Origin: Actinomycetota bacterium
GTDB taxonomy: Bacteria > Actinomycetota > Coriobacteriia > Anaerosomatales > PHET01
Length of the DNA: 63,418 nucleotides
Assembly (NCBI GenBank): GCA_037445775.1
Contig: JBBIJX010000004.1
Span: 1 to 63,418, forward strand
Reading direction: 5' to 3'
The translations under genes and the position numbers were made by a program. Each line of letters begins with the position of its first letter. The stretch's first letter is position 1. Below the pieces are notes generated by a model. The model was given only the letters and a program-made list of their open reading frames with translations. It did no database searches and was not told the origin of the DNA. Shown piece after piece: positions 19,986 through 46,758 of this stretch.

Positions 19986-20006
19986 ATGCGGGCGTTTCGC
20001 CCAGTC

Positions 20007-20522: not shown

Positions 20523-20704
20523 CGTCTCTGCTGGACCAGCCGCAGGCATCGTCTCGCGTACCCCCCTCAGGTGCGGCACCACTACCTCCGGTCAACGAAG
20601 ACCGGGCTGCACCACACGTGCGAGTAGTCGCTGTTGTCTATGTTGGCGAAGACCATCTTGATGGAGTTGGGGTCGGTGTTCGGCTTCGGAGGAATATACG
20701 CACA

Positions 20705-21538
20705 GTGAAGACCACTCTGAGTCTACATGCCGCTGCGCTGGTGATCGCCGTCGTCTTGGCCGGATCCTTGGCAGGCTGCGCCAAGCCCGAGACCGCACGT
20801 GATGACCTCCCGTACAGGGAACTCTCTGGCGCCGAACGAAAGCGACTCGATTCGCAACGAGCCGTCGTTGCCGCGGTCGCCCAGGAGCGATACGGCGTCC
20901 TTGGGCTCAGGCAGTCAGCTGCTGACCTGCCCGTCCTCCAGCGGATGCTCGACGACAGGGTGTTCAGTGAGGACCAGACCTACGAGCTACGCTCCCTTGG
21001 CGTAGCCTTCGGCGACGTTCTCGCGAATGAGTTGCCGCTGCGCTGGATGGCGATCGAGAGCCTGGAAGGGTTCCGCCCGACCCTGCGATTCAGGGATACG
21101 CCACGGGACTTCGATGCTCTCTCGCTGCTCGAGAAGGAGGGTGCGTACCGGACGCTCGATCTTTCCTCAGAGCTGGAAAGCCTCAAGAAGCAGCTTTCCT
21201 CTCTCGACACGACACCGCGCCCCGGAGGCTACCTCAATCCCGCTGAAGTGACCAAGATCGAGTTCTGGGATGGGCCGTCGGAGCGAGAGACGGTCTTCGC
21301 CGCTGACGATAAGCGGTTCGGAAGAATCCTCTCCGCGTTCAACGCTGCCGAGCGAACTGCAGCGCCTGGTGAGACCACCAACGACTACTCCATCCAGTTC
21401 TACAGCCGTGCGGGTCTTGCGGCGGGTGTGTATTTCAGTGCCGGTGATCAGGTCCTAAGGGTGCAGACGCCCCATGGTGAGAACCTCGGCATCGTGAGCG
21501 ACGAACTCGTGCGCAGGGTCCTAGAGGTCGCCCGATAG
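20705..21538 (+). CDS. Hypothetical lipoprotein
   Basis: GTG 20705 gives VKTTLSLHAAALVIAVVLAGSLAGC, a signal peptide plus lipobox LAGC. The remainder is hydrophilic with no recognised family. Confidence 0.6.
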   Translation: MKTTLSLHAAALVIAVVLAGSLAGCAKPETARDDLPYRELSGAERKRLDSQRAVVAAVAQERYGVLGLRQSAADLPVLQRMLDDRVFSEDQTYELRSLGVAFGDVLANELPLRWMAIESLEGFRPTLRFRDTPRDFDALSLLEKEGAYRTLDLSSELESLKKQLSSLDTTPRPGGYLNPAEVTKIEFWDGPSERETVFAADDKRFGRILSAFNAAERTAAPGETTNDYSIQFYSRAGLAAGVYFSAGDQVLRVQTPHGENLGIVSDELVRRVLEVAR

Positions 21539-21577
21539 TGTTCTTGGATAGCTTCTGGCACTGTCTGTCGCGCTCGA

Positions 21578-22819
21578 CTAGCTGGCGGCTGGCGGGCGGT
21601 GCCTGCGGCGGCGCCGCCGGTTCGGCTTCATGCCCCCGCCTCCCGGCTTTGGCGCGGTGCGTCGCGCGGCGCGCCCGGGATCCGGAACCAGCCGCTCCTC
21701 GGTGTAGGTGAAGCCGGGATGGTCTTCGCACGCGAGCGTCGCGCCGATCTCGCGCTCGATGTCGCGCAGGTTATCGTGCTCGTCGGGTGCCATCATCGAG
21801 ATCGCGTTGCCGCTTCTCCCCGCGCGTGCGGTCCGGCCGATGCGGTGCACGTAGTCGGCCGGAACGTTCGGCAGGTCGAAGTTCACGACGTGCGTGATGT
21901 CGTCGATGTCGATCCCCCGGCTCACGACGTCGGTCGCCACGAGCACGTGCACGCGGCCGTTCTTGAAGTCCTCGAGCGCCTTCTGGCGCTGGGCCTGCGA
22001 CCTGTTGCCGTGGATGGCCGCTCCGCGGATGCCCGCCTTGCCCAGGACGCGCGCCACGCGATCGGCGCGATGCTTCGTGCGTGTGAAGACCAGCGCGCGT
22101 TTGAGGTTGTGATGGCGGACGAGATCGATGAGAAGGTCGGTCTTCTGCTTGGCGCCCACCGGGTAGAGCGACTGCTCGATCGCTTCGACGGGCGTCGAGG
22201 GAGGCGTGACCTCGACGCGCACGGGGTCAGCGAGCGTCGCGTCGATGACCTTCACGACATCGGGCGACATCGTGGCGGAGAACAGCAGGTTCTGCCGTTT
22301 CGCCGGGAGCTTCGCGATGATGCGCCGAACGTCCGGCCAGAAGCCCATGTCGAGCATGCGGTCGGCCTCGTCAAGCACGAGCGTCTCGACGGAGGAGAGG
22401 TCGCAGTCGCCTTGGCCCACGAGGTCGAGCAGGCGCCCCGGGCACGCGACGAGCACGTCGATACCGCGCTTGAGGGCGGCCTTCTGCGGTTCGTAGCCCA
22501 CCCCTCCGTAGACGACAGCGACACGGTGGCGGGTGTGTCGAGCGACGCCGCGCGCGACCTCTTCGATCTGCAGCGCGAGCTCGCGGGTGGGAGTGACGAC
22601 GAGCGCACGGATGCCGCCCGGTGCGGCCGGGGTGCGCTGCAGCAGCGGCAGCACGAAGGCCGCAGTCTTGCCGGTGCCGGTCTGAGCGACACCAACGACG
22701 TCGCGGCCTTCGAGCACGAGCGGGATGGCTTCACGCTGGATGGGGGTCGGCTCGGCGTAGCCCATCGCGCCCACCGCCTTCATGAGGCGGGGGTCGAGAC
22801 CCAGGTTGTCGAAACTCAA
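21578..22819 (-). CDS. DEAD-box ATP-dependent RNA helicase with Arg-rich C-terminal tail
   Basis: Q motif YAEPTPIQ, motif I AQTGTGKT, DEAD (VLDEAD), SAT, HRIGRTARAG. Start set at TTG 22819 (LSFDNLGL) 5 nt after AAGGAGAG; the ORF track extends to 22948. Confidence 0.92.
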   Translation of the reverse strand: MSFDNLGLDPRLMKAVGAMGYAEPTPIQREAIPLVLEGRDVVGVAQTGTGKTAAFVLPLLQRTPAAPGGIRALVVTPTRELALQIEEVARGVARHTRHRVAVVYGGVGYEPQKAALKRGIDVLVACPGRLLDLVGQGDCDLSSVETLVLDEADRMLDMGFWPDVRRIIAKLPAKRQNLLFSATMSPDVVKVIDATLADPVRVEVTPPSTPVEAIEQSLYPVGAKQKTDLLIDLVRHHNLKRALVFTRTKHRADRVARVLGKAGIRGAAIHGNRSQAQRQKALEDFKNGRVHVLVATDVVSRGIDIDDITHVVNFDLPNVPADYVHRIGRTARAGRSGNAISMMAPDEHDNLRDIEREIGATLACEDHPGFTYTEERLVPDPGRAARRTAPKPGGGGMKPNRRRRRRHRPPAAS

Positions 22820-24070: not shown

Positions 24071-27000
24071 TCACGCGCTGAGCATCGTCACGACCACGTC
24101 GTGATCGAGGCCGTTCTCAACGAGCGGTACCCCGCCGTCACCTTCGTGCACCAAGCCATCGACGCTGATGCGCGCGACGCCGCGGTTCACGCCGCGGGGG
24201 TTGTCCACGCGTATGCGGTAGACCGTGGCGCCGTGACGGTACGTGAGCGAGAACCCCGTCCAACGCTTGGGGATGCACGGGTCGATCACGAGCCTAGAAC
24301 CGCTCGAGGTGGCCACGATTCGGAACCCCAGCAGGTGATGCAGCGCCACGCGGTAGAACCACGATGCCGAGCCGGTGTACCACGTCCATCCTCCGCGCCC
24401 GGTGTGAGGTGCAACCGCGTAGACGTCTGCGGCGACCACGTACGGCTCGACCTTGTAACGCTCGACACCGGTACGGTCCAGGGTGTGCCTGATCGGGTTG
24501 ATGAGGTCGAGGAGCGCGGCGCCCGCATCGCCATCCCCGCGCAGTAGGTAGGCGAGCACGACCCACAGCGCGGCATGCGTGTACTGGCCCCCGTTCTCAC
24601 GAACACCCGGGACGTAACCCTTGATGTAGCCGGGGTCGTGCTCCATGCGGTCGAACGGCGGCGTGAGGAGCGCTATGAGTCCGTCTTCGCGGCGCACGAG
24701 CTTCTCCTCGACACTGTCGAGCGCGACCTGCGCGTTCTCGGGGTCGGCGAGGCCCGAGATCGTCGCCCACGCCTGGACTACGGCGTCGATGCGGCACTCC
24801 TCCGAGTCGCGGGACCCGAGTGGAGTGCCGTCGTCGAAGTACGCTCGCCGGTACCACGCCCCGTCCCAACTCGTCGCTTCAATCGACGCGCCGAGTCCGG
24901 ATGCCCACGCGCGGTAGTCGCGCGCGCGGTCCGCATCGCCGCGGGACTCGCAGACAACCGCGAAGCGCGCGAGGGTGTAGGCGAGGAACCAGCCGAGCCA
25001 CACGCTCTCACCACGCCCCTCGTGTCCCACGCGGTTCATGCCGTCGTTCCAGTCGCCGCCACCCATGAGGGGCAGCCCGTGCTCGCCCACGGTCCGTCCA
25101 GTCTCAAGTGCTCTGATGCAGTGCTCGTAGACGGTCGCGGCCTGCTCGGAGGTCGCCGGCTGCAGGTAGGCGTCCTCAGCGTCAGACGCGAGCGCGGGAC
25201 CGTCGATGAACGCCGTCACCTCGTCGAGAACGCTCGCGTCGCCGGTCGTCTCGAGGTACTCGGCTACAACGAGCGGCAGCCAGTGGCGGTCGTCGGTGAT
25301 GTGCGTTCGAACGCCGCGTCCTGAGAGCGGCTGCCACCAGTGCAAGACATCGCCCTCGGGGAACTGATGCCTGCTCGCCTCGACTATCTGCTCGCGCACG
25401 AGGTCCGGGCGGGCCACGAGTAGTGCGAGCACGTCTTGCAGCTGGTCTCGGAAGCCGTACGCGCCGCTCGACTGGTACGTGGCCGTGCGACCCCACAACC
25501 GGCACGCGGTGACCTGGTAGAGGAGGTGGCCGTTCATGAGCAGATCGAGTCGGTCGTCGGGCGTGTCCACCTCGACGACGCCGAGAAGGTCGTCCCAGAA
25601 GCCGCGCGCGTCGGCGAGCGCCTTGTCGACCGCTGCGGGACGGCGGTAGCGGGCGACGATCTCGCGGCACTCGTCGAGAGTCGCCGTCTGGCCCAGGAGG
25701 AAGGAGACCTCGACGCTCGCGCCGGGTGCGAGTGTGACGTCTGTTCGCAGGGCGCCGCAGTTGTCGTGGAAGCGCCCGGAGGCTCCCGCGAGTCCCGTGC
25801 GGTGCATCGCGTCGGGATCGGCCGCGCGTCCGTTGCGACCGAGGAACTCGGTGCGGCTCGCCGTCCACGAGTGAAGCGGCCGGTCGCATGCGAGGAAAGC
25901 GCAGCGCCCGGGGAAGTCGAAGTTGAAATGGTTGTGCGCGGTGAGTATCGCGTCCTCGGCGTCGAACCAGGTGACTACCAGGTGTTGCGCCTTGGAGCGG
26001 GAGTCGCCCAGCACCCACTCCACGAGCTGGGTCACGGACAGGCGGCGCTGGCGTCCGGAGAGGTTCGTGAGCTTCAACCGGCAGACGCGCACCGGGTCGT
26101 CGGCCGCGACGAACCAGTCGAGTATGTGCGCGATGCCGCGGGTCGTGTGCTCGAAGCGAACGCCGCCACGCCCATGTCTGATCACGTAGGGCTCGGGGGT
26201 GCGCACAGGCAACGGCGTGGGGCTCCAGAACTCGCCGGTCTCCTCGTCGCGCACGTAGAGCATCTCGCCCGAGCCGTCACTCACAGGGTCGTTGTTCCAG
26301 GTGGTGATGCGGTTCTCGTGGCTGTTGAGCGCCCACGTGCACCCGATGCCCGCCTCGGAGACGATTGCTCCGAAGAGCGGGTTCGCGAGGACGTCGATCC
26401 ACGGCGCCGGCGTGGCGTCCTCGCCTTCGAGCACGATGACGTACTCCCGCGTCGCGGCGTCAAAGCCGCCGAGGCCGTTGTCGCACGCGAGCTCGGGCCG
26501 CGCGAACGGCGGGGCAGGCCAGGATTCAGGGCTGCGAGAAGGCACGAACGCGTCGGTCGTCGCCAGGAGCTCGCCGCGACGGTTGAGCTGGAGCTCCAGG
26601 CTTGTGCCGCCGTCCAGGCACGCCCGGGCGACGGTGAGCAGCAGGTTCAGCACGTCGGGGTGCATCTGGTCCGCTCGGCGCACGTAGACGCCGCCCGGCT
26701 TGTCGAGCATCTGCAGTGCGTGTCCGGTGCGCACCAGGAGGCGCAGACGGTCCTCGAGCTCGCTCGCGTACGCGCTCGGCTTCGTGTTGAGGATGACGAG
26801 GTCGGAGACGAGACCCTTGTGCCGCCAATACTGATGTGCGAGCAGGGCCTGGCGGACCAGCGGAGCGTGCTCGATCTCGTCGACACGCACGAGCAGTATG
26901 GGATGGTCGCCTGAGATGCCGATCGACCATAGGCCGTCAATCCGCAGCCCGTTCTCGACCGGCGTCTTGATCTTGAGCGGCGAGTGCGGGTCTGTGAGCA

Positions 27001-30000
27001 GAAGGCGCGAGGCGAGGCGTTCGATGGTTACGGCCTCACGCGGCGTGATGCCGAGGTCCCTCAGCTCGAGTTGCGAAGCGGTCCATGCCAGGTCTATGGC
27101 ACGCTGCGCGGCTGCGGCCTCGTGGTACTTCTCCGTCAGGCGCAGGGCCTCGTCCCGCGTGCGCGCGACACCCTTCGTGAACACGAGGCGAGCGGTCTCC
27201 CCGGGGCGTACCGTGAGGGCCCGCCGCATCGCACAGCAAGGATCGAGGACCGCTCCGTGCGTGTTGGGCAGACGCCCGCCGCGCTCGATAGCCACGGGGT
27301 TGGTGACGTTGCGCAACCGGCCGAGGAACGCCGCGCGGTCCGTCTCGTACGACCATTCGCACTCCTGCTGTTCACAGGCGAGCACGTGCAGACCCCACGC
27401 TCGTCGCTCATCGGCGCTCCGCGGCCGCCTCGAGAACAGCAGCGCGTGAGTCCCGGGCAGCGCCTCGGTCTCGATGAAGAGGTTCGAGAATGACTTGTGA
27501 GCCTGGTCAGCGGCTTGCGCGGTCAAGGCGATCTCGAAGTATGAAGTGACTTCCAGTGAGCGCTCCGTGAGCCCGTGGTTCGTGATGGCGAGGCGCCTCA
27601 CCTCGACGTCGTCCTCGGGGGACACGGCCGCTTCGACGTGCGTCTCGAGATCGCCGTCGAACCGGCGGTACTCCGCCTTGTCCGGCGCGAACGTCACGTG
27701 ATAGCGATCAGGGCGAGTGGGCATGGGGTTGTGCGGCGCCGAGAAGCACGTCCCGCTCGCCGCGTCGCGCACGTAGAAGAAGGTGCCCCAGCAGTCCCGT
27801 GTCACGTCCTCGCGGTAGCGGGTGACTGCGAGGTCGTTCCAGCGCGAGTAGCCACCGCCACCGTTCGTGACCATGACTGAGTAGACGCCGTTGGACAGGA
27901 AGTGGGTCGCGGGCACGGGGGTCTCGGCGAGCGGGTATGTGCGCGCGACGGGCGGCGGCAGTTCTCGCACTGAACGCACCTCGCGTACTTCCTCGACGTG
28001 CGGTTCCACGAGGACGATGTTGCGCGGTACGCGCTCCTGCAGGAGCAACTCGGCAGCGTTCACCATGGGATCGGCGTGGAACCGCCGCTGCATCACAGTG
28101 TCCGTGAGCGCATTGACGAGGGCCACGTAGCTCATCCCCTGGTGATGTGCGAAGTACGCGCGAACCACCGCGCGGCTCTGTCCGGCCGGTACGCGTCCCG
28201 CTGTGTAGTCGATCGACTCGTAGAAGCCGTAGCGGCCTTCGGCGCCTTGTGTCCGTAGCAATGCGAGATTGCCGAGTACCGCATCACGTGCGAACGGCAG
28301 CGCGAGGATCGAAGCGTACGGCGCCACGACGATGTCGTCCGACAGGCCGCGCTTGAGGCCGAGACCTGGAACGCCGAACGCCTGGTACTGGTAGGTGAGT
28401 TCGGCGTCTCTCGCGTTGAACGCACTCTCTGAGACGCCCCAAGGCACACCGCGTTCGGCGCCGTAAGCGATCTGCCGCACGACCACCGAGCGGTATGTCT
28501 CAGCGAGCAGGGTCTTGGGCCAGTCCCGCATGACGAGCACCGGCATCAGGTACTCGAACATCGATGCCGACCAGCTGACGAGCGCGCGACCCTTTCGCGT
28601 TCCCGTGAGCGCGCGCCCGAGCCGGAACCAGTGCTCTTGCGGGACGTCTCCCTTCGCGATGGCGAGGAAACTCGCAAGCCGGCACTCACTCGCTATGAGG
28701 TCGTAGAAGCTGTTGTCCAGCTTGCCCTCGGCTAGGTTGTAGCCGATCGAGAAGAGCTGGCGGTGCGGGTCGTAGAGCATGAGGAAGTCGGTGTGCTCCC
28801 ACATCTCGCGTGCGATGTCACCGTTGAGGCGCAGCCGTGCGAGGAGCTCGACTGCGTGCGGGCGAGCTTGACGAAACAGACCGAGAACCTCGCCTGACCA
28901 GCGCGCGACGTCGGCGTTCTGGTCTTCGCTTAGCTCGGCGAGCGCGAGCAGGGCGTCGGAGAGCCCCTCCGCGAGACCCACGAGGCTCGGGGTGTGTGCG
29001 AACAGCGGCTGCAGCGCAGGATGCTCGCGTACGGCGACCGGGGCATCGTCAAGGTGCGTCGCCCATGGCGCCAGGGTGCCCACCAGGGCGAGAGGTCGGC
29101 TGACGGCGCGCGCCGCGTCGTAGACCGACGCCCTGAGCGCCTCGAGCGGCGTGCCCGGTACCGGCGGCGCGGTGGCGTGTCGCACGTCGGGAGCGCCTGC
29201 GGCAGGCTCTGCATCAGCGGCTGGCTCTGCGAGTTCGTCGACTGCGGCGAGCGTGTCCTCGAAGGTGCGCTGTGCTCGCGTGAGCAAGGCGGACCACGAG
29301 CCCAAGTCGTGCGGGGGCGCCGACAGCGCGAGCGAGCGCTCGAGGGCCTCCAGGCACTCGTGGCACCGGCGCACGGCTTCGACCGGTCCGAGGTTCGGCT
29401 CGCCGGCCACGAGGTCCTCCAGCGCGAGGCGCACGCCGTCCCGGGCGCCGGCTATCACCTGCGGCCCGAGGAGCGGGGACTCGCTCGCCTCAAGGAGCCC
29501 GATGCGCAGCACGAGCAGGTGGCCCGCGAGGTTGCCCGAGTCGACAGTCGACACGTATGCAGGGTGGAGCGGACTCAAGGTGCGGATGTCGTACCAGTTG
29601 TAGAAGTGCCCGCGGAAGCGCTCGAGTCCGGCCAACGTCGACAGCGTTGCAGAGACGCGTTCGACCAGCCCGTCGAGTGTGATGTGTCCGAGGTCGTAGG
29701 CGCCAAGGTAGGTGAGCAGCTGCAGTCCGACGTTCGTGGGCGACGTGCGCCATGCCACGACGCCGCGCGGTTGCTCCTGGAAGTTGTCGGGCGCTAGGTG
29801 ATGGCCTTCTGCGGTGACGAAGGCGTCGAAGTAGCGCCATGTCGCGCGCGCGACGCGCCGCAGCGACTGCCGGTCCGGGTCGCTGAGGGCTTCGGTCTCC
29901 CGCACGGGAAGCGGTGTGGACAACCACCATGCGGCAAGTGGGGCGCTTGCCCACAACAACGCCAGCGGGAGTGCGGTCGCGGCGCGCGCGGGTTCGAGGT

Positions 30001-32896
30001 AGACCGCCGGAGCGAGGAGGGCGACAGAAGCCAGTGCCCCGGGCCCCATCGTGCGGTAGAACGTTCGCGCCGTGGTGCCCGCCCGCTTTTCCGCGTCTGC
30101 GGCGGTCTCCCACTCAAGGAGGCTCCGACGGCTGACGAACCGGCGCCAGAGCGCCCGGAATGCGGCATCGAGCGTAAGGTGAGCCTTGTGCGGGAGTGTC
30201 GCGAGTGCGAGCGTCTCGCGCCACACGCCAGCCCCGAGATCGCGCACGATCCCAGGCAGCGACGTCGACAACGGCACCGACCCCGGTCGCGACGCCAGCG
30301 CATCGAGGAAGGAGAAGAGGGCCGGGAACAGCACCACGAGGAAACCGGCGAGCGGCCACCAGAGGGCCTGCCCGGGAACTAGCACCCATCCCACCGTGAT
30401 GAAGAGAACCGTCGCCGGGGCTACCAGCGAGCGTCGCAGATTGTCGGTGAGCTTCCAGCGGTGCAAGAGACTCAGCGGGTTGGCTATCGCGGTGCCGTCC
30501 TCGGTGCGGATCGTCGCGCCAAGGTACGGGACCGTCTGCCAGTCACCTCGGATCCAGCGGTGCAGGCGCGAGGAGGAGGCGAGGTAGTTCGCCGGGTGGT
30601 CGTCGAGCACCTCGACGTCGCTCGCGAGCCCGGTGCGGACGAAACATCCCTCGAGCAGGTCGTGGCTGAGCAGGGTGCTCTCCGGGAACAGGCCTTCGAG
30701 CACGTGCGCGAAGACGTCGACCTCGAAGATTCCTTTGCCGGTGAATGAGCCCTCGCCGAACACGTCCTGGTAGGTGTCTGACACGGCGTTCGCGTACGGA
30801 TCGATCCCAGGCAACCCCGAGTAGAGGGCGGCGTAGCGGCTGCGCTCCGCGCCCGCGATCGTCATGCTCACGCGCGGCTGGACGAGGCCGTATCCTCGCG
30901 TGACGATTCGCCGTCCCGGCTCAAGCCGAGCGCGATTCAAGGGGTGCGCTATCGTGCAGATGAGCTTGCGGGCGTCGTCGAGCGGCAGGACGGTGTCGGC
31001 GTCGAGCGTGATGACGAACGCGCATGAGCGCCGGAATTCCTCGTCGCCGAGTTTCGTCGAGAACGTCGTCTCGGGCTCGCCGCGCATCTCGCGCACGAGT
31101 TCGACGAGTGCGCCGCGCTTGCGTTCCCAGCCCATCCATTCGCCTTCGCTGTCGCTGAAGGTCCGTCGGCGCATCAGCAGGTGGAAGGGTCGTCGCCCGT
31201 GCTCGGCCTCGTAGCGGGCGTTGAGCTCGGAGATCCCGCGCACGGCGGCCTCCAGGATCTGCTCGTCTGAGGCGAGAAGGGGCTGGGTGGCGCTCCGCAC
31301 GTCGCCAAGCAGCGTGAAGCCGACGTTGGAATCGCGATTCGCGAGGTAGGCCACCTCGAGGTTCGCGATCACATGCTGCGCGGTCTTTGAAGACGTCAGC
31401 AGCGCCGGAACGACCACGAGAGTGCGGTGGTCGTCTGTCACGGGGACGCGGTGGTCTAGCTTTGGCAACGTCCGCGCGGCGAACGTGAACGAACAGACCC
31501 TGTTGAGCAGGGTGATCGCGATCTCTGAGACCGGCAGCACTCCCAGCAGCACGAGGAGGGCGGTCTGCTCGGGCGAAGCTCCGGCGACGAGCGCCGTCAA
31601 CGCAAGGCCGGCGATCAACACCGCCTCCGTGACGACGAGCGTGCCCCAGTAGAAGAGCCCCCGGTTTCTGAGCGGCCCCCGGAACAGCCGCTCCCGGGTC
31701 AGCGGGTTGTAGCCGACAAGCCCCTCGAGTTCGTAGCGCCCGCCGGAAATGAGCCACCAGCCCACGTGTCCTCGCACCGCGTCGGCCGGGTCGGCGACGA
31801 TCGCGCCGCGAGCGAGCGCGACCACCGTCTCGGCGAGTTCGATCTCCGACTTCGGGCAGCGGCGCGCCATGAGCTCAAGCGCATGACGGTAGCGGTCTCG
31901 GCTCGCGAAGTCCATCGCTGCGTAGGTGTGCGACGGATCCCTGCGCAGGATCTCTTCGACGAGCGAGACGCGCTCGAAGAAGGTGCGCCACTCGAGCGCG
32001 TCGAGGAATCTGATAGAGGTGATCGCGTTGGCGATGGAGACTTGGTTCGCAGCTTGGGCGAGCTGTTGAGCTACTGCGGTGGACTCGAACGAGATGCCGG
32101 TTGATGCGAGCCAGCGCTCGGTCCAGATACTGACCGCCTCGGGCATGGGCTCGAGGTCCGCAAGGCGCTGTGCAAGGCGGACGTAGAAGGACGGATGGGC
32201 GTCTGACGCTTCGGCCTCAAGACGGGCGAGCAGCGAAGTCAGCGTCTCGGGTGCGTCCTGCGACGCAAGGAGGAGGCGTTCTGCCCACGTGTCGGCGGCG
32301 CGTTCGGCGCGCATCGTCGAGACGACCGAGCGCGACAGGCGCCTGAGGTTCTCGACGATCGCGATCCGGAGCATGATCGGGATCGCCCAGACCTCGCCCA
32401 TAGCGAGCGCCGCGACGTCCTGATAGCCCGCGACAAAGCTGATGAGACGCTCCTCATCTATGCGCGAGTCCGTATGGGCGACGAGGCCGAGCAGGGCCTC
32501 GTAGATGCGTGGGAAGCCCGCATGCTCGCCGCTGGTCAGGTGTGGAAGCTCGGCGCCGTAGCCTGCGGGCAGGTCCTCATGGACGATGAGCACCTGTTCT
32601 TCGATCAGGTAGTAGTTGTCGAGCAGCCACTCGCCCGCAGGAGGAGCTCCTACTCCTGAGCGCACCGCGCTGGACAGCTCCGCGTTGTCCTCGGCGAGCC
32701 ACGTCGCCGCGCGCTCGATGAGTCCTGTGAGCGGGGTTGAGCGGCCGTGCGGCTCGGCGCTGTAGTGCTGCAGCGCCGCGACGCCGCGGGCTTCGTCGGA
32801 CAGGCGGTCCGCGGTGAGGATCTCCGCGCGCAGCGGCGGTTCGTCGGCGGGCGACGACGTGTTGCGACGGTGCGCGGTGGCGTTCGGGTCGGCCAT
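24071..32896 (-). CDS. Cyclic beta-1,2-glucan synthase-like giant enzyme (N-terminal TM/GT84 glycosyltransferase + C-terminal GH94 glucan phosphorylase-like domains)
   Basis: Single 2941-aa ORF. GT motifs are FVITLDADTVLP, GLVQPRV, LSHDLLEG and HRWIRGDWQ. The C-terminal GH94-type motif is PLMGGGDWNDGMNRVG. The size and order match Cgs/NdvB/ChvB enzymes. RBS is GAGAGGAG before ATG 32896. Confidence 0.85.
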   Translation of the reverse strand: MADPNATAHRRNTSSPADEPPLRAEILTADRLSDEARGVAALQHYSAEPHGRSTPLTGLIERAATWLAEDNAELSSAVRSGVGAPPAGEWLLDNYYLIEEQVLIVHEDLPAGYGAELPHLTSGEHAGFPRIYEALLGLVAHTDSRIDEERLISFVAGYQDVAALAMGEVWAIPIMLRIAIVENLRRLSRSVVSTMRAERAADTWAERLLLASQDAPETLTSLLARLEAEASDAHPSFYVRLAQRLADLEPMPEAVSIWTERWLASTGISFESTAVAQQLAQAANQVSIANAITSIRFLDALEWRTFFERVSLVEEILRRDPSHTYAAMDFASRDRYRHALELMARRCPKSEIELAETVVALARGAIVADPADAVRGHVGWWLISGGRYELEGLVGYNPLTRERLFRGPLRNRGLFYWGTLVVTEAVLIAGLALTALVAGASPEQTALLVLLGVLPVSEIAITLLNRVCSFTFAARTLPKLDHRVPVTDDHRTLVVVPALLTSSKTAQHVIANLEVAYLANRDSNVGFTLLGDVRSATQPLLASDEQILEAAVRGISELNARYEAEHGRRPFHLLMRRRTFSDSEGEWMGWERKRGALVELVREMRGEPETTFSTKLGDEEFRRSCAFVITLDADTVLPLDDARKLICTIAHPLNRARLEPGRRIVTRGYGLVQPRVSMTIAGAERSRYAALYSGLPGIDPYANAVSDTYQDVFGEGSFTGKGIFEVDVFAHVLEGLFPESTLLSHDLLEGCFVRTGLASDVEVLDDHPANYLASSSRLHRWIRGDWQTVPYLGATIRTEDGTAIANPLSLLHRWKLTDNLRRSLVAPATVLFITVGWVLVPGQALWWPLAGFLVVLFPALFSFLDALASRPGSVPLSTSLPGIVRDLGAGVWRETLALATLPHKAHLTLDAAFRALWRRFVSRRSLLEWETAADAEKRAGTTARTFYRTMGPGALASVALLAPAVYLEPARAATALPLALLWASAPLAAWWLSTPLPVRETEALSDPDRQSLRRVARATWRYFDAFVTAEGHHLAPDNFQEQPRGVVAWRTSPTNVGLQLLTYLGAYDLGHITLDGLVERVSATLSTLAGLERFRGHFYNWYDIRTLSPLHPAYVSTVDSGNLAGHLLVLRIGLLEASESPLLGPQVIAGARDGVRLALEDLVAGEPNLGPVEAVRRCHECLEALERSLALSAPPHDLGSWSALLTRAQRTFEDTLAAVDELAEPAADAEPAAGAPDVRHATAPPVPGTPLEALRASVYDAARAVSRPLALVGTLAPWATHLDDAPVAVREHPALQPLFAHTPSLVGLAEGLSDALLALAELSEDQNADVARWSGEVLGLFRQARPHAVELLARLRLNGDIAREMWEHTDFLMLYDPHRQLFSIGYNLAEGKLDNSFYDLIASECRLASFLAIAKGDVPQEHWFRLGRALTGTRKGRALVSWSASMFEYLMPVLVMRDWPKTLLAETYRSVVVRQIAYGAERGVPWGVSESAFNARDAELTYQYQAFGVPGLGLKRGLSDDIVVAPYASILALPFARDAVLGNLALLRTQGAEGRYGFYESIDYTAGRVPAGQSRAVVRAYFAHHQGMSYVALVNALTDTVMQRRFHADPMVNAAELLLQERVPRNIVLVEPHVEEVREVRSVRELPPPVARTYPLAETPVPATHFLSNGVYSVMVTNGGGGYSRWNDLAVTRYREDVTRDCWGTFFYVRDAASGTCFSAPHNPMPTRPDRYHVTFAPDKAEYRRFDGDLETHVEAAVSPEDDVEVRRLAITNHGLTERSLEVTSYFEIALTAQAADQAHKSFSNLFIETEALPGTHALLFSRRPRSADERRAWGLHVLACEQQECEWSYETDRAAFLGRLRNVTNPVAIERGGRLPNTHGAVLDPCCAMRRALTVRPGETARLVFTKGVARTRDEALRLTEKYHEAAAAQRAIDLAWTASQLELRDLGITPREAVTIERLASRLLLTDPHSPLKIKTPVENGLRIDGLWSIGISGDHPILLVRVDEIEHAPLVRQALLAHQYWRHKGLVSDLVILNTKPSAYASELEDRLRLLVRTGHALQMLDKPGGVYVRRADQMHPDVLNLLLTVARACLDGGTSLELQLNRRGELLATTDAFVPSRSPESWPAPPFARPELACDNGLGGFDAATREYVIVLEGEDATPAPWIDVLANPLFGAIVSEAGIGCTWALNSHENRITTWNNDPVSDGSGEMLYVRDEETGEFWSPTPLPVRTPEPYVIRHGRGGVRFEHTTRGIAHILDWFVAADDPVRVCRLKLTNLSGRQRRLSVTQLVEWVLGDSRSKAQHLVVTWFDAEDAILTAHNHFNFDFPGRCAFLACDRPLHSWTASRTEFLGRNGRAADPDAMHRTGLAGASGRFHDNCGALRTDVTLAPGASVEVSFLLGQTATLDECREIVARYRRPAAVDKALADARGFWDDLLGVVEVDTPDDRLDLLMNGHLLYQVTACRLWGRTATYQSSGAYGFRDQLQDVLALLVARPDLVREQIVEASRHQFPEGDVLHWWQPLSGRGVRTHITDDRHWLPLVVAEYLETTGDASVLDEVTAFIDGPALASDAEDAYLQPATSEQAATVYEHCIRALETGRTVGEHGLPLMGGGDWNDGMNRVGHEGRGESVWLGWFLAYTLARFAVVCESRGDADRARDYRAWASGLGASIEATSWDGAWYRRAYFDDGTPLGSRDSEECRIDAVVQAWATISGLADPENAQVALDSVEEKLVRREDGLIALLTPPFDRMEHDPGYIKGYVPGVRENGGQYTHAALWVVLAYLLRGDGDAGAALLDLINPIRHTLDRTGVERYKVEPYVVAADVYAVAPHTGRGGWTWYTGSASWFYRVALHHLLGFRIVATSSGSRLVIDPCIPKRWTGFSLTYRHGATVYRIRVDNPRGVNRGVARISVDGLVHEGDGGVPLVENGLDHDVVVTMLSA

Positions 32897-33008
32897 GGGC
32901 TCCTCTCAGGACGCGGCGAGAGTCCCTGTTGGTGAGCGGGTTGCTGTGGAACAGGAGTAGGGTGATTATCCCCGAGAGGGACCCGGAGCGTGACCGCTTG
33001 TCGGCGGC

Positions 33009-33024
33009 ATACCCCATGGGGTAT
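33009..33024. promoter_or_regulatory. Perfect 16-bp palindrome ATACCCCATGGGGTAT (CsoR/RcnR-family-like operator) in a divergent promoter region
   Basis: Read directly. The right arm overlaps the TATATT -10-like hexamer (33022..33027) upstream of ATG 33061. Confidence 0.55.
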
Positions 33025-33060
33025 ATTGAGACTCTGATCGGGCGGATGCGAGGAGCGTGC

Positions 33061-33762
33061 ATGAAGCCGAAGAACGTGGTTCTGGTCGTTGTCCTGGTCG
33101 TGGCGGCGATCTTCGTCGCCTGGAACCTCTCGCGCCCGGCTGGCGGTACCGGGGTCTCCAACGTCGACGCCGCGGGAGCGGCCGCGGCAATCAAGCAGGG
33201 TGCCCAGGTGGTCGACGTGCGCTCGCCCGCCGAGTTCGAGCTCGGGCGCATCCCCGGCGCCATCAACGTCCCCATCGAGACGGTGGAGAGCCGGGTGGGG
33301 AGCTGGGACAAGGACCGCCTCTACCTCATCTACTGCGCCACCGGAGCCCGATCGCAGACCGCGCTTGAGATCGTGAAGGCGCAGGGGTTCACGAATATCC
33401 GCCACTTCGCGGCGGGCATCCAGGCGTGGCCCGGCGAGCTCGAGAAGGGCGCCGCGACGTCGTCGCAGCAGATTCCCACGGCCGGCAAGCCGGTCTTTCT
33501 GGAGTTCTACACGGACAGTTGACCCGCCTGCAAGGAGATGGAGCCTGTGGTCGACAGGCTGAAACAGCGCTACGGCGATGACGTGGAGTTCCGCATCCTC
33601 AACGTCGAGACCGACACCGACGCGCGCGCGCTCGCGGCTTCGCTCGGCGTGACCGGGGTACCGACGTTCTTCTTCGTCAACAGCGATGGCGTGCAGGCCG
33701 GCCAGATCGTCGGTGGAGCCACCGAGACGCAGCTCGCATCCATGATCGAGCAGTTGCAGTAG
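33061..33762 (+). CDS. Membrane-anchored rhodanese-thioredoxin fusion, candidate selenoprotein (Sec encoded by TGA 33520..33522)
   Basis: AGGAG lies 5 nt before ATG 33061 and MKPKNVVLVVVLVVAAIFVAW is a TM anchor. The rhodanese active-site loop is IYCATGARS. ORF 33538..33762 is in frame with the TGA. Read-through gives KPVFLEFYTDS-U-PACK...GVPTFFFV, a thioredoxin fold with UxxC. A SECIS-like hairpin lies downstream. Confidence 0.7.
33542..33560 (+). promoter_or_regulatory. SECIS-like hairpin (AGCCUGU-GGUCG-ACAGGCU) downstream of in-frame UGA
   Basis: Perfect 7-bp stem with a 5-nt loop beginning GGU. The loop starts 26 nt after the UGA. Confidence 0.6.
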
Positions 33763-34424
33763 AGATGCGAAGGCTGCGAAGGCGAAGGCCTCCAAGGCTT
33801 CGGCAGTATGGCGGTTTGTATGCGGGTGCGGCGTGGGAATAGTCATAGCAGGCGGGGATCGCCTCGCCGCAGTCGGCATGCGAAAGGAGACACCTTCGAG
33901 GTGGATGCAACCTGCATAGCCGAACATCCGGCCGGGATGGCAGAGTAAGGCCCTCGTGCGCGCTATCTGAGAGACAGTTCTTTGCGAGTTGAGTGCGCTG
34001 GTTGTCTGTGAAGGTTGGACGAGGCGTCCGTAGGACAGACGCCCCTGGTGTGTGAGTACTCGATCCGAGGTCGCCGAGGGTCAGGCATAAGCCCGCAGCG
34101 GTACGGGGATGCGAGCGCACGGACAGAAGCGTTCAAGAGGCCCCGAGGATAGCCCTTTGGAGGGGCAGCACGGGCGAAGCGAAGGCCATCCCGGTCACCC
34201 AGCTCTTGAGACCGGCGCAGCGGCGCCGGTGCGCGAGGAAGGCGGGCGCAGAGGCGGCCCGCCTTCTCTCACGAACCCGGCTTGCGCATATTGCGGCTCG
34301 CGGCCGGGCCTTTGGACGGAGCCCGCGTTTCGGGCCGATGCCGGAAGCATCGCGGAGCCCGCGTTTCGGGCGGGTGTCCGGGACGCGAGTTCTGCGTGAA
34401 GAGCGTATGGCTCGGGGTAACCGC

Positions 34425-34463: not shown

Positions 34464-34539
34464 GGGGACGTAGCTCAGCTGGGAGAGCGCGGGCTTTGCA
34501 AGCCTGAGGTCGTGGGTTCGAGCCCCATCGTCTCCACCA
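34464..34539 (+). tRNA. tRNA-Ala (anticodon UGC)
   Basis: Acceptor GGGGACG/CGTCTCC with the G3:U70 Ala identity pair. Anticodon loop CTTTGCAAG, T-arm GGGTTCGAGCCCC. Discriminator is A and CCA is encoded. Confidence 0.93.
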
Positions 34540-37635: not shown

Positions 37636-38955
37636 TCAGAGCTTGTCCGACACGATGAGGTCGAGCGTCTCGGGTTCGATGACCTCGACGATGCGCGGTC
37701 CGTCGCCGTCGAGGTCCACTTCGAGCGAGTCGGCTAGCTCGAGGCCCCGCGCATCGTGCGTCACGCGCACCGTCGGTTCGAGCGGGCTCGCACCCGGGCG
37801 GGACACTACACCGACCGTCTGGTCAGAGAGCCGCACTAGGCACCCGACAGGGAAGACGCCGAGCGCTCCGACGAACAGGCGGGTGAGCACCGGGTCGAGC
37901 GGCCCATTCGATTCGCGCATCAACTGGACGACCGCCCGGTCGGGAGTGAGTGCGGCCGTGCCGTTCCCGGGATCGGTCAGGTTATGGAAGCGATTGGCCA
38001 CCGAGACCATGCGGCTGAACGGGTGTGCCACGTAGTCGTTGGGCCGCTCCGGCCAACCCGAACCGTCGACGCCCATGTGGTGCTCGAAGGCGACCAGCAT
38101 CGGTGCCGGATCCTCCAACGCGACGCGCTGCAGGATGTCTGCGCCGACCTTCGGGTGCATCTCGTGCATCGGGGCGGCCTGCCCGGGCTCTGCGGGGTCG
38201 AATGCGGCCTTGCCTACGTCGTGGAGCAGGGCCGACAGGCCGAGTGAGTGCAGCCCCTCGTCTGGCAGACCTAGCCGCTGCCCGAGCAGCAACGCATAGA
38301 TGGTGACGTTGAGTGAGTGGAAGAGGCCGTGCTCGCCGGTACTGCGGATCGTCGCAAGGCCGAGCATCGCACCCGGGTCTGCGAGCAGGCGCTCGATGAC
38401 GCTTCCCACGAGCGAGCTCGTCCGCGAGAGGTCCGGGCTCGCACCTGCGGACAAGCGCTCCTGGACGTGTTTCAGGTCCGACAGGAAGCGCTGGTAGAGT
38501 TGCCGGTCCTCGGCGCGCTGCCGGTTGCGCTCCTCCCGCTCTTCGCCGCCGTGGTCGCTTAGCATGCGTATCGTCACGCCGGCCACGCCGCGCGCGGCTA
38601 GTTCCGAGGGGACGTCAAGGTCCGGCGACGGCTTCGACATCAGCACCTGGGTGAGTCCGATCGCGTCGGTCTCGCAGAACGCCGCCGAGAACGCAAGCGA
38701 CTCGATGCAGCGGGACTCGAGCGCCTCGGCGATCGAGGCGAGCGATCCCTGGTCGCCTGCGAGCACGTCGCTTCCGTGGTAGAGGTGGCCCTGGTGCCAG
38801 TTCAGCACGAGCGGCTCGTCGCGCGTCGCGTTCCGCACGCAAGCAACGAGCGTCTCGACGGCCTCGCGGTGCGCCGGATGGGCTGGCGGGTACAGCTGGA
38901 TGGCCTTGCGCGTGCCGGACAGCGCGGCAACCACCCGGGTTGCTACGTCTTCCAT
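37636..38955 (-). CDS. HD-GYP-type phosphohydrolase (variant GWP motif) with N-terminal LYP..HP module
   Basis: LLHDVGK and FEHHMGVDGSGWPE. The ATG overlaps the stop of the upstream HEAT gene (TGATG). Confidence 0.85.
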   Translation of the reverse strand: MEDVATRVVAALSGTRKAIQLYPPAHPAHREAVETLVACVRNATRDEPLVLNWHQGHLYHGSDVLAGDQGSLASIAEALESRCIESLAFSAAFCETDAIGLTQVLMSKPSPDLDVPSELAARGVAGVTIRMLSDHGGEEREERNRQRAEDRQLYQRFLSDLKHVQERLSAGASPDLSRTSSLVGSVIERLLADPGAMLGLATIRSTGEHGLFHSLNVTIYALLLGQRLGLPDEGLHSLGLSALLHDVGKAAFDPAEPGQAAPMHEMHPKVGADILQRVALEDPAPMLVAFEHHMGVDGSGWPERPNDYVAHPFSRMVSVANRFHNLTDPGNGTAALTPDRAVVQLMRESNGPLDPVLTRLFVGALGVFPVGCLVRLSDQTVGVVSRPGASPLEPTVRVTHDARGLELADSLEVDLDGDGPRIVEVIEPETLDLIVSDKL

Positions 38956-40937
38956 CAGGTATCACCGCCTCGCATGCGGGTGGCCTGTGCGCGCTTGACA
39001 AGCTCCTGGACCTCGGCGAAGTGCCCGCGCTTGATGAGGGCCCGCCTACCCGCGAGTCGCTCCAGGGCCTCGTCTGCAGCGGCGCCGGGTACCTTGGCGA
39101 GCGCCGCGATGAGCTCGCGCGCGATGGCGAAGTCCCCGTTGTCGATGTCGAGCTCGGCCAATCGTGCAGCGAGCAGTTTGTCGGCGCTTGGCGGACAATG
39201 CCTGACGAGCGCGCGCACCGCCGAGATCTCAACCTCGGCGCTCGGGTCGCGCAGCGCGTGGCCGATGAGACGGGTGGCGGCGGGTGTGCCGGCCATCGCC
39301 AGACCGGTCACGACTTCGCGGCGGGACTGTTCGTCGGGCCGCTTCAGCAGGGACTCGATCGTCGAGACGGAGTGCGCATCACCCTCCTGTGCCAGGCGCG
39401 TCACGAGGGGCGCGACCTGATACCACTGGGCGGCAGAGGCGCACTCGTTGAGCGCGTCGACGATACGGCGGCCGATTATGGCCTCCGCGACCTGGAGGCC
39501 CGGCGCCTTCAGCGCGATCGCCTCGGTCACGAGTGCGGACGTGCCCGCGTCGCCTGCTGAACGGACGATCGATCGCGCAGATTCCACCGCCGCGTGATCG
39601 GCCTGCACGGCCGCGAGCAGGGCGCGCATCGCACGAGGCCCCGCAGCGGCGTTGCGCGCCTCACGCAGGCGGCCGGAGAGCTGGGGCCATGGGCTGTCGT
39701 TGTACGCCTCTCGGTTGCCGAACTCGGTCATGACCCGGGCGGCCATGTCCAGGTCTCCCTGCTCAATGAGGCGCGGCACCATCGAGGAGAGGTTCATCGC
39801 TGCAGCGCAGTAGAGCTCGAAGTCCTGCTGCTGGTCGAGGAGGTGCAACATGGTGCGCACACTCGAGCTAGCGACGTCACGCTGCGCGGCGTCGACCGCA
39901 GCCCGGGACGCCGCCACGGACTTGGCGCTCAACCGCGTCGCGTCGGCCACCGCGCGGTAGACGGCGTCGGTGTCGACGAGCGCTGGTTCCGGAGTGGCGC
40001 GCCCGCGAACGTCGAGCATGTGCTCGAGGAAGTCCGCCTCCTTGGCCGAGTGGCCGCTCGCGGGCAACATCGCCCGGACTTCCGCGCGCACCTGCGCCGT
40101 CACTTGGTCGAGCGGCAGGTTCGTCAACGCGCTCGAGAGCGAGAGCATGTTCTTGCCGAAAGTGCCGCCCAGAATCGAGCCCGCGATGTCGGCCGACGAG
40201 AGGTTCTGGAACATCTGCCCGGTGAGTTCGCGTACCGGGCCGGGATCCATCGCGAGCTCGAGGAGCGCGTCCTTGCGTTCGGCGTCCTGAGTGCGAAACG
40301 CGACCGCAAGCGATTCCAGCAACGGTCCCAAACCAGCGGAGCCGGAGACGCGTGCGAGTTCCGTCAGTCCCTCTTGAAACGATGCCGGATCGCCGCCCGC
40401 GGCAGAGGCGAACCAAGCGCCGAGCCGTTCGGGGTCAGCGGACAACGAGCGGAGGAACTCCTCGACATCGGTCGAGGGTCCCGCTGCGGCCTGATCGACG
40501 ACTGTGAGCTGAACGCCGGCGACGCGAGCGTGTTCGACGCCGGCTTCGACGAGTGCGACCGACAGACCGCCCGAGGCGCGGAGCTCGCCGGGCGGTGTGA
40601 GCACCGCACGCAAAAGCGCGAGCAGCTCGTTCGCGTCGCAGCCCGGCAAGAACGCTACCTCGGCCACCCCGTGCTCCCGCAGCTCGTCAGAGAGCTCCTG
40701 CGCGCCCACGACCGCCGTACCAAGCGGGGCGCCCTGGAAGGCGAAGCCGTCGCGGGCAACGGCGAGCGCTACGACCGGCTCGCCGTTCGCGAAGTACGCG
40801 GCAAGCGCCGCCTCCGCGCTCTCCAGGCACTGGCGGGGAATCGGGCTTGTGGGCGGGTAGAGACGCAACGCCTTGCCGGCCGATGTCACCGCACGCACGA
40901 CGTTATCGATGGTGGCTGATTCGCAGATCTCCGACAC
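38955..40937 (-). CDS. HEAT-repeat protein sharing an N-terminal module with the downstream HD-GYP protein
   Basis: C-terminal HEAT-like repeats (ATRLIGHALRDPSAEVEISAVRAL...). N-terminus reads VVRAVTSAGKALRLYPPTSPIPR. It is a paralog of 46759..48927. Confidence 0.7.
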   Translation of the reverse strand: MSEICESATIDNVVRAVTSAGKALRLYPPTSPIPRQCLESAEAALAAYFANGEPVVALAVARDGFAFQGAPLGTAVVGAQELSDELREHGVAEVAFLPGCDANELLALLRAVLTPPGELRASGGLSVALVEAGVEHARVAGVQLTVVDQAAAGPSTDVEEFLRSLSADPERLGAWFASAAGGDPASFQEGLTELARVSGSAGLGPLLESLAVAFRTQDAERKDALLELAMDPGPVRELTGQMFQNLSSADIAGSILGGTFGKNMLSLSSALTNLPLDQVTAQVRAEVRAMLPASGHSAKEADFLEHMLDVRGRATPEPALVDTDAVYRAVADATRLSAKSVAASRAAVDAAQRDVASSSVRTMLHLLDQQQDFELYCAAAMNLSSMVPRLIEQGDLDMAARVMTEFGNREAYNDSPWPQLSGRLREARNAAAGPRAMRALLAAVQADHAAVESARSIVRSAGDAGTSALVTEAIALKAPGLQVAEAIIGRRIVDALNECASAAQWYQVAPLVTRLAQEGDAHSVSTIESLLKRPDEQSRREVVTGLAMAGTPAATRLIGHALRDPSAEVEISAVRALVRHCPPSADKLLAARLAELDIDNGDFAIARELIAALAKVPGAAADEALERLAGRRALIKRGHFAEVQELVKRAQATRMRGGDT

Positions 40938-46631: not shown

Positions 46632-46758
46632 GTCGGCATGATAGCGCAGGACAGGCGGGTATCACGGCGGGCTCGGCCTCCGGCCCGAGGAGCGCGTGCA
46701 CTGCCCTATAATCGGGGGAGACTCGCCGCGCGCACGCCCGGCGAGGGGAGGAGACGGC

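Follow-up and report, generated by a model that had tools for sequence, protein, structure and literature searches.

A predicted selenocysteine-containing rhodanese–thioredoxin fusion protein from the Coriobacteriia

Gene structure and domain architecture

The stretch of DNA analyzed here (hereafter "the window"; 63,418 nucleotides of an Actinomycetota bacterium, contig JBBIJX010000004.1, 67% GC) carries on its forward strand, at 33061..33765, a rhodanese–thioredoxin fusion of 233 codons that is interrupted by an in-frame TGA. This is almost certainly one gene, in which codon 154, the TGA, is decoded as selenocysteine (Sec). The open reading frame (ORF) starts with the ATG at 33061, 5 nt beyond a Shine-Dalgarno-like GAGGAG (33050..33055), with the sequence MKPKNVVLVVVLVVAAIFVAW..., continues through a rhodanese domain, and ends with ...GKPVFLEFYTDS at the TGA (33520..33522). 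The same frame resumes with P-A-C-K-E-M-E-P and runs on (PACKEMEPVVDRLKQRYGDDVEF...GVTGVPTFFFVNSDG...EQLQ) to a TAG stop at 33763-33765, the TGA being the sole interruption. An initial annotation, made from the sequence alone, had described a rhodanese ORF that ends at this TGA and a frame that runs on beyond it, and the translation confirms this.

For domain assignment, a read-through translation with Cys at the position of the stop was used. Residues 41–123 (33181..33429) match PF00581 (Rhodanese; 61.8 bits against a cut-off of 22.2, E = 9.4e-17), and residues 136–230 (33466..33750) match PF00085 (Thioredoxin; 57.3 bits against a cut-off of 23.5) as well as PF13098 (47.5 bits). The TGA falls inside the PF00085 match, which extends 18 residues to its N-terminal side and 76 residues to its C-terminal side. 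Rhodanese structures in the PDB match the rhodanese part, and thioredoxin structures match residues 132–231. The rhodanese active-site residue, Cys92, is encoded by the TGC at 33334..33336 and lies in the loop C-A-T-G-A-R-S. In the thioredoxin-fold domain, the predicted Sec154 is the first residue of U-P-A-C, and the TGC at 33529..33531 encodes the putative resolving residue, Cys157; this domain also has a G-V-P-T-F loop, which we take to be the cis-Pro loop of thioredoxins. A linker of about 20 residues, rich in Gly, Ser, Ala, and Thr, connects the two domains. The N terminus consists of a short positively charged stretch (MKPKN) followed by 16 hydrophobic residues, VVLVVVLVVAAIFVAW (residues 6–21; 33076..33123), which form a predicted signal-anchor. 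Orthologs start with MKPK or MKSK at the equivalent place.

The GC content at third codon positions (GC3) is 0.93 before the TGA and 0.89 after it, in one frame, and position 33520 is the only in-frame TGA of the window with coding-type GC3 on both flanks. A scan based on this property found no further selenoprotein gene in the window or in approximately 100 related loci. A near-identical copy of the gene is present in two other assemblies. In public gene calls, the locus appears as a 153-residue rhodanese and a 71-residue thioredoxin fragment, and the Joint Genome Institute (JGI) labels such proteins "rhodanese-related sulfurtransferase" or "phage shock protein E."

Occurrence of the TGA-containing gene in other genomes

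A translated search over one genome per species identified two relatives (L001 and L002) with approximately 57% identity. In each, the aligned codon is TGA, and P-T-C and an uninterrupted thioredoxin frame come after it. A protein search against 5.8 billion clusters gave 100 matches, about 85 of which were "rhodanese" proteins of 150–154 residues covering 66% of the query; the retrieved sequences among these all end in (K/L)P(V/L)(F/M)xEF(Y/F)T(D/N)(S/T/G), that is, at the same stop. A full-length Cys form was absent among the 100 matches. The DNA pattern EFxT(D/N)x-TGA-CCN-NNN-TG, run over a species-level genome collection, yielded at least 96 distinct loci with the TGA followed by about 79 in-frame thioredoxin codons, and this downstream frame of 79 codons is intact in almost all of them. 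At the codon that the initial annotation had assigned to Sec, the homologs thus keep the TGA; they do not show two genes with an unrelated residue at this position.

About 60 of these loci encode fusions of an anchor, a rhodanese domain, and the thioredoxin part, and come from metagenome-assembled genomes (MAGs) of Coriobacteriia/Actinomycetota, including a MAG labelled Slackia and Coriobacteriaceae bacterium EMTCatB1 (assembly BDLO01). The TGA form is also carried by the assemblies GCA_964403355.1 (CAYOFW01), DYEA01, and DATHUB01. About a dozen loci of the same clade have only a lipoprotein signal and no rhodanese domain. The rhodanese domain is also lacking in two loci from Chloroflexota and in 14 loci from Poribacteria, the latter having a long N-terminal extension. 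The motif in orthologs is UPSC, UPTC, or UPAC, and the relatives retrieved by protein search have P and C as well. Two divergent proteins from that search, P0086 and P0087 (DNA loci L137/L138), have both TGA-P-x-C and the hairpin described below.

Several of these relatives have features of their own. In the paralogs without rhodanese domain (L027, L033, L035, L040, L050, L072, L074, L083, L099, L102, and L130), a lipoprotein or anchor signal directly precedes the thioredoxin(U-P-x-C) part, and the same hairpin is present; L130 lacks it in register, and its RNA may instead fold into a stem of 7 bp closed by a 12-nt loop. Three assemblies contain both types of gene: DIWS01 (L050 and L058), JBASNZ01 (L040 and L092), and DFBG01 (L020 and L072). 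L112 has Tyr in place of the active-site Cys of the rhodanese (VYYATGSRS), and its TGA-thioredoxin part is intact. One database protein of 140 residues, P0084, consists of the beginning of the rhodanese fused directly to the final part of the thioredoxin and may be a deletion or an assembly chimera. L015 and L073, from Chloroflexota/Anaerolineae MAGs, encode a secreted thioredoxin with W-TGA-P-(T/S)-C and have an in-register hairpin with the loops CGUGC and CGUGA.

The Poribacteria loci (L017, L045, L047, L049, L051, L057, L069, L071, L075, L076, L082, L096, L115, and L132) encode long proteins with a C-terminal thioredoxin domain containing W-TGA-P-x-C. Their hairpin, GGCGCC-AGUUGU-CGCC, is a different one; it starts 18 nt after the TGA and is conserved, with GGUG/CACC covariation. 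Judged from these features, the Poribacteria proteins look like a separate candidate selenoprotein family.

A conserved hairpin downstream of the TGA

The initial annotation had placed a 7-bp hairpin 19 nt after the TGA, with its loop starting 26 nt after this codon, and the coordinates proved correct: the hairpin, AGCCUGU-GGUCG-ACAGGCU, occupies 33542..33560 of the forward strand, with the stem formed by 33542-33548 and 33554-33560 and the GGUCG loop at 33549-33553. On its own it folds at -11.7 kcal/mol. A stem of 7 bp with a 5-nt loop fits the general form of the bacterial selenocysteine insertion sequence (SECIS), in which the stem has 6–8 bp and a conserved G of the small loop is found approximately 20 nt past the UGA (PMC4605307; PMC1088965).

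Conservation of the hairpin was assessed in an ungapped alignment of 75 distinct sequences, filtered on pairing, which starts two codons ahead of the TGA and extends 57 nt beyond it, or 60 nt counting from its T. The seven pairs are formed in 95.8% of the cells of this alignment, compared with 86.3% in shuffled versions, and none of 500 shuffles reached the observed value. Shifting the 3' partners by one to three columns lowers pairing to 22–49%. At pair 33-43, the 75 sequences have CG (38), UA (34), GC (2), or UG (1), and at pair 34-42, GC (57), CG (7), UA (6), or AU (5); neither pair is unpaired in any sequence. RNAalifold independently recovers the same helix. Positions 2 and 3 of the loop (GU) are invariant in the alignment; the conserved loop G/U of SECIS elements is what SelB recognizes. 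A second set of 77 relatives was picked solely by at least 35% identity of the thioredoxin part. In 76 of these, at least six of the seven pairs are formed in register, and the loop is GGUCG in 63.

The covarying positions belong to codons for different amino acids. The third position of a Pro codon pairs with the first position of an Arg or Gly codon (CCU/AGG, CCC/GGG, and CCG/CGG), and the first position of a Val or Leu codon pairs with the third position of an Asp or Glu codon (GUG/GAC, CUG/GAG, and UUG/GAA). Because the covariation joins different codons in this manner, the protein sequence follows the RNA pairing. Based on these comparisons, we conclude that the hairpin is selected as RNA.

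Cysteine-containing homologs

The 79 residues after the TGA were searched exhaustively with HMMER against 1.84 billion representatives. All matches listed with at least 45% identity are fragments that start at or just after the Met six codons past the TGA, nearly all of about 74 residues, and most matches at 40–44% identity are fragments of the same kind. Judged by sequence, these fragments are the second halves of other TGA-containing forms. Full-length proteins reach about 40% identity at most; the closest of them are extracytoplasmic lipoprotein thioredoxins, in which WCxxC is aligned with the motif, and CcdA–thioredoxin fusions.

A scan with the DNA pattern carrying TGY in place of TGA was run to completion and gave 116 stretches in all, among which the only close Cys ortholog is L201 (36-833), from a Coriobacteriia MAG with the assembly prefix CAZMJV01. 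L201 encodes an uninterrupted lipoprotein–rhodanese–thioredoxin of 238 residues with the motif W-C-P-G-C, which aligns with the protein of the window from end to end (37% identity, E = 3e-55) and has Cys opposite the TGA. Since L201 is a single ORF, the two halves form one polypeptide. The initial annotation had proposed a search for homologs with Cys at this position, and the Cys ortholog supports the placement of the TGA at the first Cys of the thioredoxin motif. In L201, the SECIS-like stem is degraded by two internal mismatches, and the palindrome upstream of the gene (see below) is kept; the hairpin is hence retained, with compensatory changes, in the relatives with TGA and impaired in the form with Cys. 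Sec and Cys forms occur in species-level genomes at a ratio of about 60:1. From these alignments, the TGA forms and L201 are a classical Sec/Cys pair.

Promoter region and gene neighborhood

A consensus scan upstream of the gene found a promoter-like site at 32998..33027 of the forward strand, with TTGTCG as -35 element, an 18-nt spacer, and TATATT (33022-33027) as -10 element; shuffled sequences are expected to give 0.1 such sites, compared with the one site found, which is a predicted promoter. The palindrome ATACCCCATGGGGTAT, with the core TACCC-N4-GGGTA, lies in the spacer and overlaps the -10 element (33009..33024). This core is present in 46 of the 96 loci listed, all of the rhodanese type, and in L201, at a distance of 499–635 nt upstream of the TGA, mostly about 500–525 nt. 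Similar palindromes have been described as a CsoR-family operator in Streptomyces, ATATACCCCTNAGGGGTATAT (PMC3902906), and as a CstR operator upstream of the rhodanese gene rhdB in Streptococcus mitis, ATATACCCTTATGGGGTATAT (PMC8643695), but the spacing here is TAC-N8-GTA compared with TAC-N9-GTA in the published operators, which are G/C-tract pseudopalindromes containing this inverted repeat. We regard the palindrome as a candidate operator of the CsoR/CstR family, which provides a regulatory lead.

The gene stands alone, with a divergent gene resembling GH94 glucan synthases on one side and tRNA-Ala, acylphosphatase, and HlyIII genes on the other. Neighborhood counts for the related loci were dominated by spurious antisense ORFs of high-GC DNA, and the only real recurrent neighbors are PII genes and tRNA-Ala. 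The tRNA-Ala(TGC) gene of the window lies at 34464-34539, some 0.7 kb farther downstream. In the fetched loci, ARAGORN detected 47 genes for tRNA-Ala, a number that suggests that synteny is conserved in many of the relatives. In 36 relatives, but not in the window, PII (GlnB-like) genes come next, on the other strand. The divergent gene (24071-32896, reverse strand) encodes a protein of 2941 residues in which a glucoamylase-like domain is combined with the supersandwich and catalytic domains of GH94, as in cyclic β-1,2-glucan synthases.

Predicted location and proposed function

The hydrophobic N-terminal 17-mer is present in 54 of 55 rhodanese-type orthologs, with a lipobox instead in 14. According to the positive-inside rule, the protein would be oriented with its N terminus inside and its C terminus outside, and it is probably extracytoplasmic. 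Given the conservation of the N-terminal segment or lipobox, both catalytic domains should face outward. The rhodanese domain itself is presumably catalytic, because the active-site loop is strictly conserved in the fusion: CxxGxRS was found in all 55 complete rhodanese-type orthologs that were scored. Taken together, the sequence features make it likely that the protein works outside the cytoplasm as a sulfurtransferase coupled to a selenothiol reductase.

The chemistry and regulation can be specified further only tentatively, with the odds somewhat against any one detailed version. The signal-anchor, or a lipoprotein anchor in some orthologs, probably tethers the protein to the outer side of the cytoplasmic membrane. 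Cys92 of the rhodanese domain would take sulfane sulfur from thiosulfate, polysulfide, or persulfide, giving Cys-SSH; the selenolate of Sec154 would then attack the Cys92 persulfide and either free sulfide or pass the sulfur on. The Se–S bond thus formed with Cys157 would be reduced again by an electron carrier in the membrane, of the CcdA/DsbD type. In E. coli, thioredoxin accepts sulfane sulfur from the persulfide of the rhodanese GlpE, and this relay, together with the covalent fusion seen here, suggests the same relay in cis. In net terms, the protein would be a fused thiosulfate/persulfide:thioredoxin sulfurtransferase-reductase, probably switched on via a repressor of the CsoR/CstR family. 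An electron supply of the DsbD/CcdA type is hinted at by P0109, in which a related thioredoxin domain is fused to a CcdA-type membrane domain, and by a weak match to the TsoB model discussed below. The fullest version of this proposal is an exported, essentially Sec-obligate enzyme family of environmental Coriobacteriia in which a relay from a surface-anchored rhodanese to the selenothioredoxin carries sulfane sulfur or selenium, is recharged across the membrane by a CcdA/DsbD-type carrier, and is controlled by a CstR-like sensor of persulfides; as a whole, this is possible but doubtful.

Some results weigh against these functional proposals. No DsbD/CcdA-type gene was found in the window, and no CcdA, sel, or sulfur gene is linked to the gene in the related loci; more generally, no functionally linked neighbor was found in either. 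Likewise, a search of the window and the fetched loci for a CsoR-like gene, by regular expressions and by tblastn with CsoR sequences as queries, gave none.

A different role for the selenoprotein was also weighed. It could be a general extracytoplasmic thiol-disulfide reductase or isomerase resembling ResA, CcmG, or TlpA, acting for example in cytochrome c maturation or copper stress, or it could handle selenium or tellurium oxyanions, the rhodanese domain carrying Se, and would in neither case be a persulfide or thiosulfate reductase. Lipoprotein–thioredoxin(U) paralogs without rhodanese domain, in the same genomes, and the nearest Cys relatives, being lipoprotein thioredoxins and CcdA fusions, speak for such a role, as do the copper genes that CsoR-type operators classically control (PMC3902906) and the implication of thioredoxin in selenite reduction (PMC8538045). 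These points are countered by the strictly conserved rhodanese loop of the fusion, which argues that this domain is catalytic, by the restriction of the operator-like palindrome to rhodanese-type genes, and by the control of rhodanese genes by very similar CstR operators (PMC8643695). We consider a role of this other kind unlikely, and favor the sulfurtransferase coupled to a selenothiol reductase.

Decoding of the TGA

In the proposed mechanism, which is the standard bacterial one, the UGA at 33520-33522 would be decoded as Sec, with SelB and Sec-tRNA(Sec) recruited by the 7-bp GGUCG hairpin 19 nt downstream. We read the locus as one gene and not two because the thioredoxin match spans the TGA, GC3 is of the coding type on both sides, three relatives (L015, L040, and L041) lack a second start codon, and L201 is a single ORF.

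Were there two adjacent genes, the first would encode a 153-residue anchored rhodanese and the second a thioredoxin-like fragment of 71–74 residues, with its start (ATG or GTG) six codons past the TGA. This is the division made in public gene calls, most relatives have ATG or GTG at this place, and in the window AAGGAG lies ahead of it; moreover, since Sec decoding is usually inefficient, the shortened rhodanese is probably made too. However, the AGGAG directly abuts the ATG, with no spacer, and L015, L040, and L041 carry ATA, GTC, or ATC, none of them a start, at the position of the Met codon. The second ORF lacks strand β1 and the redox motif, and the Pfam match crosses the TGA, in agreement with the view of the initial annotation that neither half is sensible alone. 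The frame relation and the exact gap of 15 nt are common to all relatives, the Cys ortholog is a single ORF, and separate genes would leave the covariation of the hairpin without a role. A pair of genes is thus very improbable.

We consider it equally improbable that the TGA of this one gene is read as something other than Sec, be it as Trp (code 4), by near-cognate or programmed read-through, or as Cys inserted by the Sec machinery. Trp had to be checked because UGA has been reassigned to Trp in Eggerthellaceae, which belong to the same class (PMC13462651), and the machinery for Sec was not seen for this genome, of which the window was covered. The reassigned Eggerthellaceae have 31–40% GC and no UGA stops, and most other Eggerthellaceae have tRNA-Sec and selB (PMC13462651). 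By contrast, the window has 67% GC and a single in-frame TGA, and 20 of its 42 predicted genes end in TGA, which argues that UGA is not reassigned to Trp here. A Trp in the position of the nucleophile would also ruin the CxxC chemistry, giving W-W-P-x-C in most orthologs, and decoding by SelB would predict just such a conserved hairpin, with GU in its loop and at the distance of a SECIS.

A nonsense mutation, whether from pseudogene formation or from an assembly or sequencing error, has a negligible chance of being the explanation: the contig is of the metagenome type and P0084 may be a deletion or chimera of the two halves, but the same TGA recurs across independent projects, in at least 96 genomes at species level and in about 85 protein clusters, with the downstream 79-codon frame intact in almost all, and a near-identical copy exists in two other assemblies.

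The following observations weigh against decoding as Sec. ARAGORN found no tRNA-Sec in the window, where the only tRNA genes are tRNA-Ile and tRNA-Ala, or in the fetched loci. In tblastn searches with SelA, SelB, and SelD from E. coli (NC_000913.3), no match was obtained in the loci of the carrier genomes, approximately 1 Mb of related DNA, and the single selD match came from an unrelated Saprospiraceae locus (L010); Pfam searches with the 40 larger ORFs of the 63-kb window also gave no sel gene. A 76-nt segment containing the hairpin is no more stable than shuffled sequence (z = -0.31), and with the energy of the single sequence being unremarkable, support for the hairpin is comparative and not energetic. 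The loop G lies 27–28 nt after the UGA, farther than in fdhF (19–20 nt) and than the approximately 20 nt given in PMC4605307. Positions 33490-33620 gave no Rfam match even at E <= 10, the sensitivity of SECIS models for such elements being unchecked. Downstream of the TGA, dN/dS (the ratio of nonsynonymous to synonymous substitution rates) has a median of 0.45, which is only moderately low and, with dS near saturation, a weak measure. Conservation of P-x-C in the DNA-pattern set is partly built in, because the pattern demanded TGA-CCN-NNN-TG. The evidence is computational throughout. Weighing these points against those given above, we consider the explanation as a whole, with gene identity weighted most heavily, to be very likely.

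Other features of the window

Searched at the Rfam gathering thresholds, the whole window contains only the two tRNAs and a group II intron fragment. The latter, a match to the catalytic-domain RNA (40-111, forward strand; 41.5 bits against a gathering score of 40), lies at the start of the contig and overlaps the start of a predicted subtilase ORF (68-3538). Two similar gene pairs, each coding for a HEAT-repeat protein and an HD_5/HD-domain protein, are found at 37636-40937 (reverse strand) and 46696-50414 (forward strand). Two PIN-domain ORFs and a ribbon-helix-helix (CopG) ORF, located at 19135-19623 (reverse strand), 55620-56255 (forward strand), and 57970-58224 (forward strand), are possibly remnants of toxin–antitoxin systems. 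The regions 6920-8066, 10312-11878, 19623-21578 (with tRNA-Ile at 20007), and 59601-61047 contain no convincing ORF.

Novelty and implications

The prokaryotic selenoproteins inventoried in 2026 (PMC13188914) include Trx (UxxC), thiol:disulfide interchange protein (UxxC), and TsoB, as well as five forms of rhodanese with Sec in or near the rhodanese site; a rhodanese–thioredoxin(UxxC) fusion is not in this inventory. NCBIfam release 20 has no specific model for a rhodanese–thioredoxin selenoprotein. The absence from these two sources agrees with the initial annotation, in which the fusion was not recognized as a described selenoprotein. A rhodanese–thioredoxin fusion is also missing from the list of selenoprotein domain fusions in the Global Ocean Sampling (GOS) paper, neither BSepDB nor the deep-Sep literature mentions rhodanese or thioredoxin, and the papers on EMTCatB1 are silent on selenium.

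UxxC selenoproteins with a thioredoxin fold have been known for two decades (PMC1088965), and decoding, fold, and motif are all canonical here. What is new is the family itself, which is widespread in Coriobacteriia, its architecture, its predicted location, its near-exclusive use of Sec, and the clade in which it occurs. In public records, the family is mis-annotated as a shortened "rhodanese-related sulfurtransferase / PspE" and an orphan thioredoxin fragment, an error that affects no fewer than 60 genomes at species level and about 85 protein clusters. Its recognition corrects these records and adds a family to the prokaryotic selenoproteome, one in which rhodanese and thioredoxin, known to cooperate in trans, are joined in a single predicted exported polypeptide. 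The use of Sec with almost no Cys alternatives (about 60:1) implies that, in these anaerobic Coriobacteriia, extracytoplasmic catalysis has a strong requirement for selenium. The hairpin provides a covariation-supported SECIS type for a poorly studied class, and an instance of amino-acid choices (V/D, L/E, and P/R-G) shaped by RNA pairing. The conserved candidate operator would link the regulation of the gene to sulfide or copper stress. If the functional proposal is true, the family would constitute an unrecognized, selenium-dependent extracytoplasmic route for detoxifying or respiring reactive sulfur species.

Comparison with known systems

The initial annotation had likened the hairpin to the SECIS element of E. 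coli fdhF, and this likeness holds in part. Both hairpins lie within the coding sequence just 3' of the UGA and have a loop that begins with GGUC, but the spacing differs, the distance from the UGA to the start of the loop being 18 nt in fdhF and 26 nt here. Moreover, the stem here is a perfect 7-bp helix and lacks the bulged U that the fdhF stem has.

With the UxxC Trx selenoproteins (PF00085; for example, Trx of Treponema denticola), the protein of the window shares an intragenic hairpin and the use of Sec for the nucleophilic, N-terminal Cys of CxxC. It passes both the PF00085 model and PF13098, the model of the "thiol:disulfide interchange protein" selenoproteins (UxxC), and both of these thioredoxin-fold groups are listed as known prokaryotic selenoprotein families (PMC1088965; PMC13188914). 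Unlike the known UxxC thioredoxins, it has an additional anchor and rhodanese domain and is predicted to be extracytoplasmic. Cys forms are widespread in the known thioredoxin family (PMC1088965), whereas one Cys ortholog stands against about 60 or more Sec forms here.

Its rhodanese part resembles the single-domain rhodaneses GlpE and PspE of E. coli and the CstR-regulated rhodaneses RhdA/RhdB and CstA in its size of about 100 residues and its six-residue CxxGxR(S/T) loop, with NCBIfam and PDB matches to GlpE and PspE that are well below the cut-offs of the models. PspE is periplasmic, and GlpE passes sulfur to thioredoxin. In contrast to GlpE/PspE and the CstR-regulated rhodaneses, the thioredoxin acceptor is here fused in cis and uses Sec. 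The CstR-regulated rhodaneses differ further in having an operator spacing one base longer than that found here, where no cstR or csoR lies nearby in the window and loci.

TsoB (NCBIfam NF045694) is the only NCBIfam selenoprotein model with any similarity to the protein of the window, and TsoB, too, unites in a single selenoprotein a rhodanese domain with a thioredoxin-like C-terminal domain of the DsbD type. The match is weak and falls into two segments (42.5 bits against a cut-off of 805), so the protein is not a member of this family. TsoB, whose model has 572 positions, is DsbD fusion-like by name, has two Sec residues in UxxxxU, and belongs to an operon of three selenoproteins (PMC13188914), whereas the protein described here has 233 amino acids, one membrane segment, and one predicted Sec in UxxC, and is encoded by a stand-alone gene.

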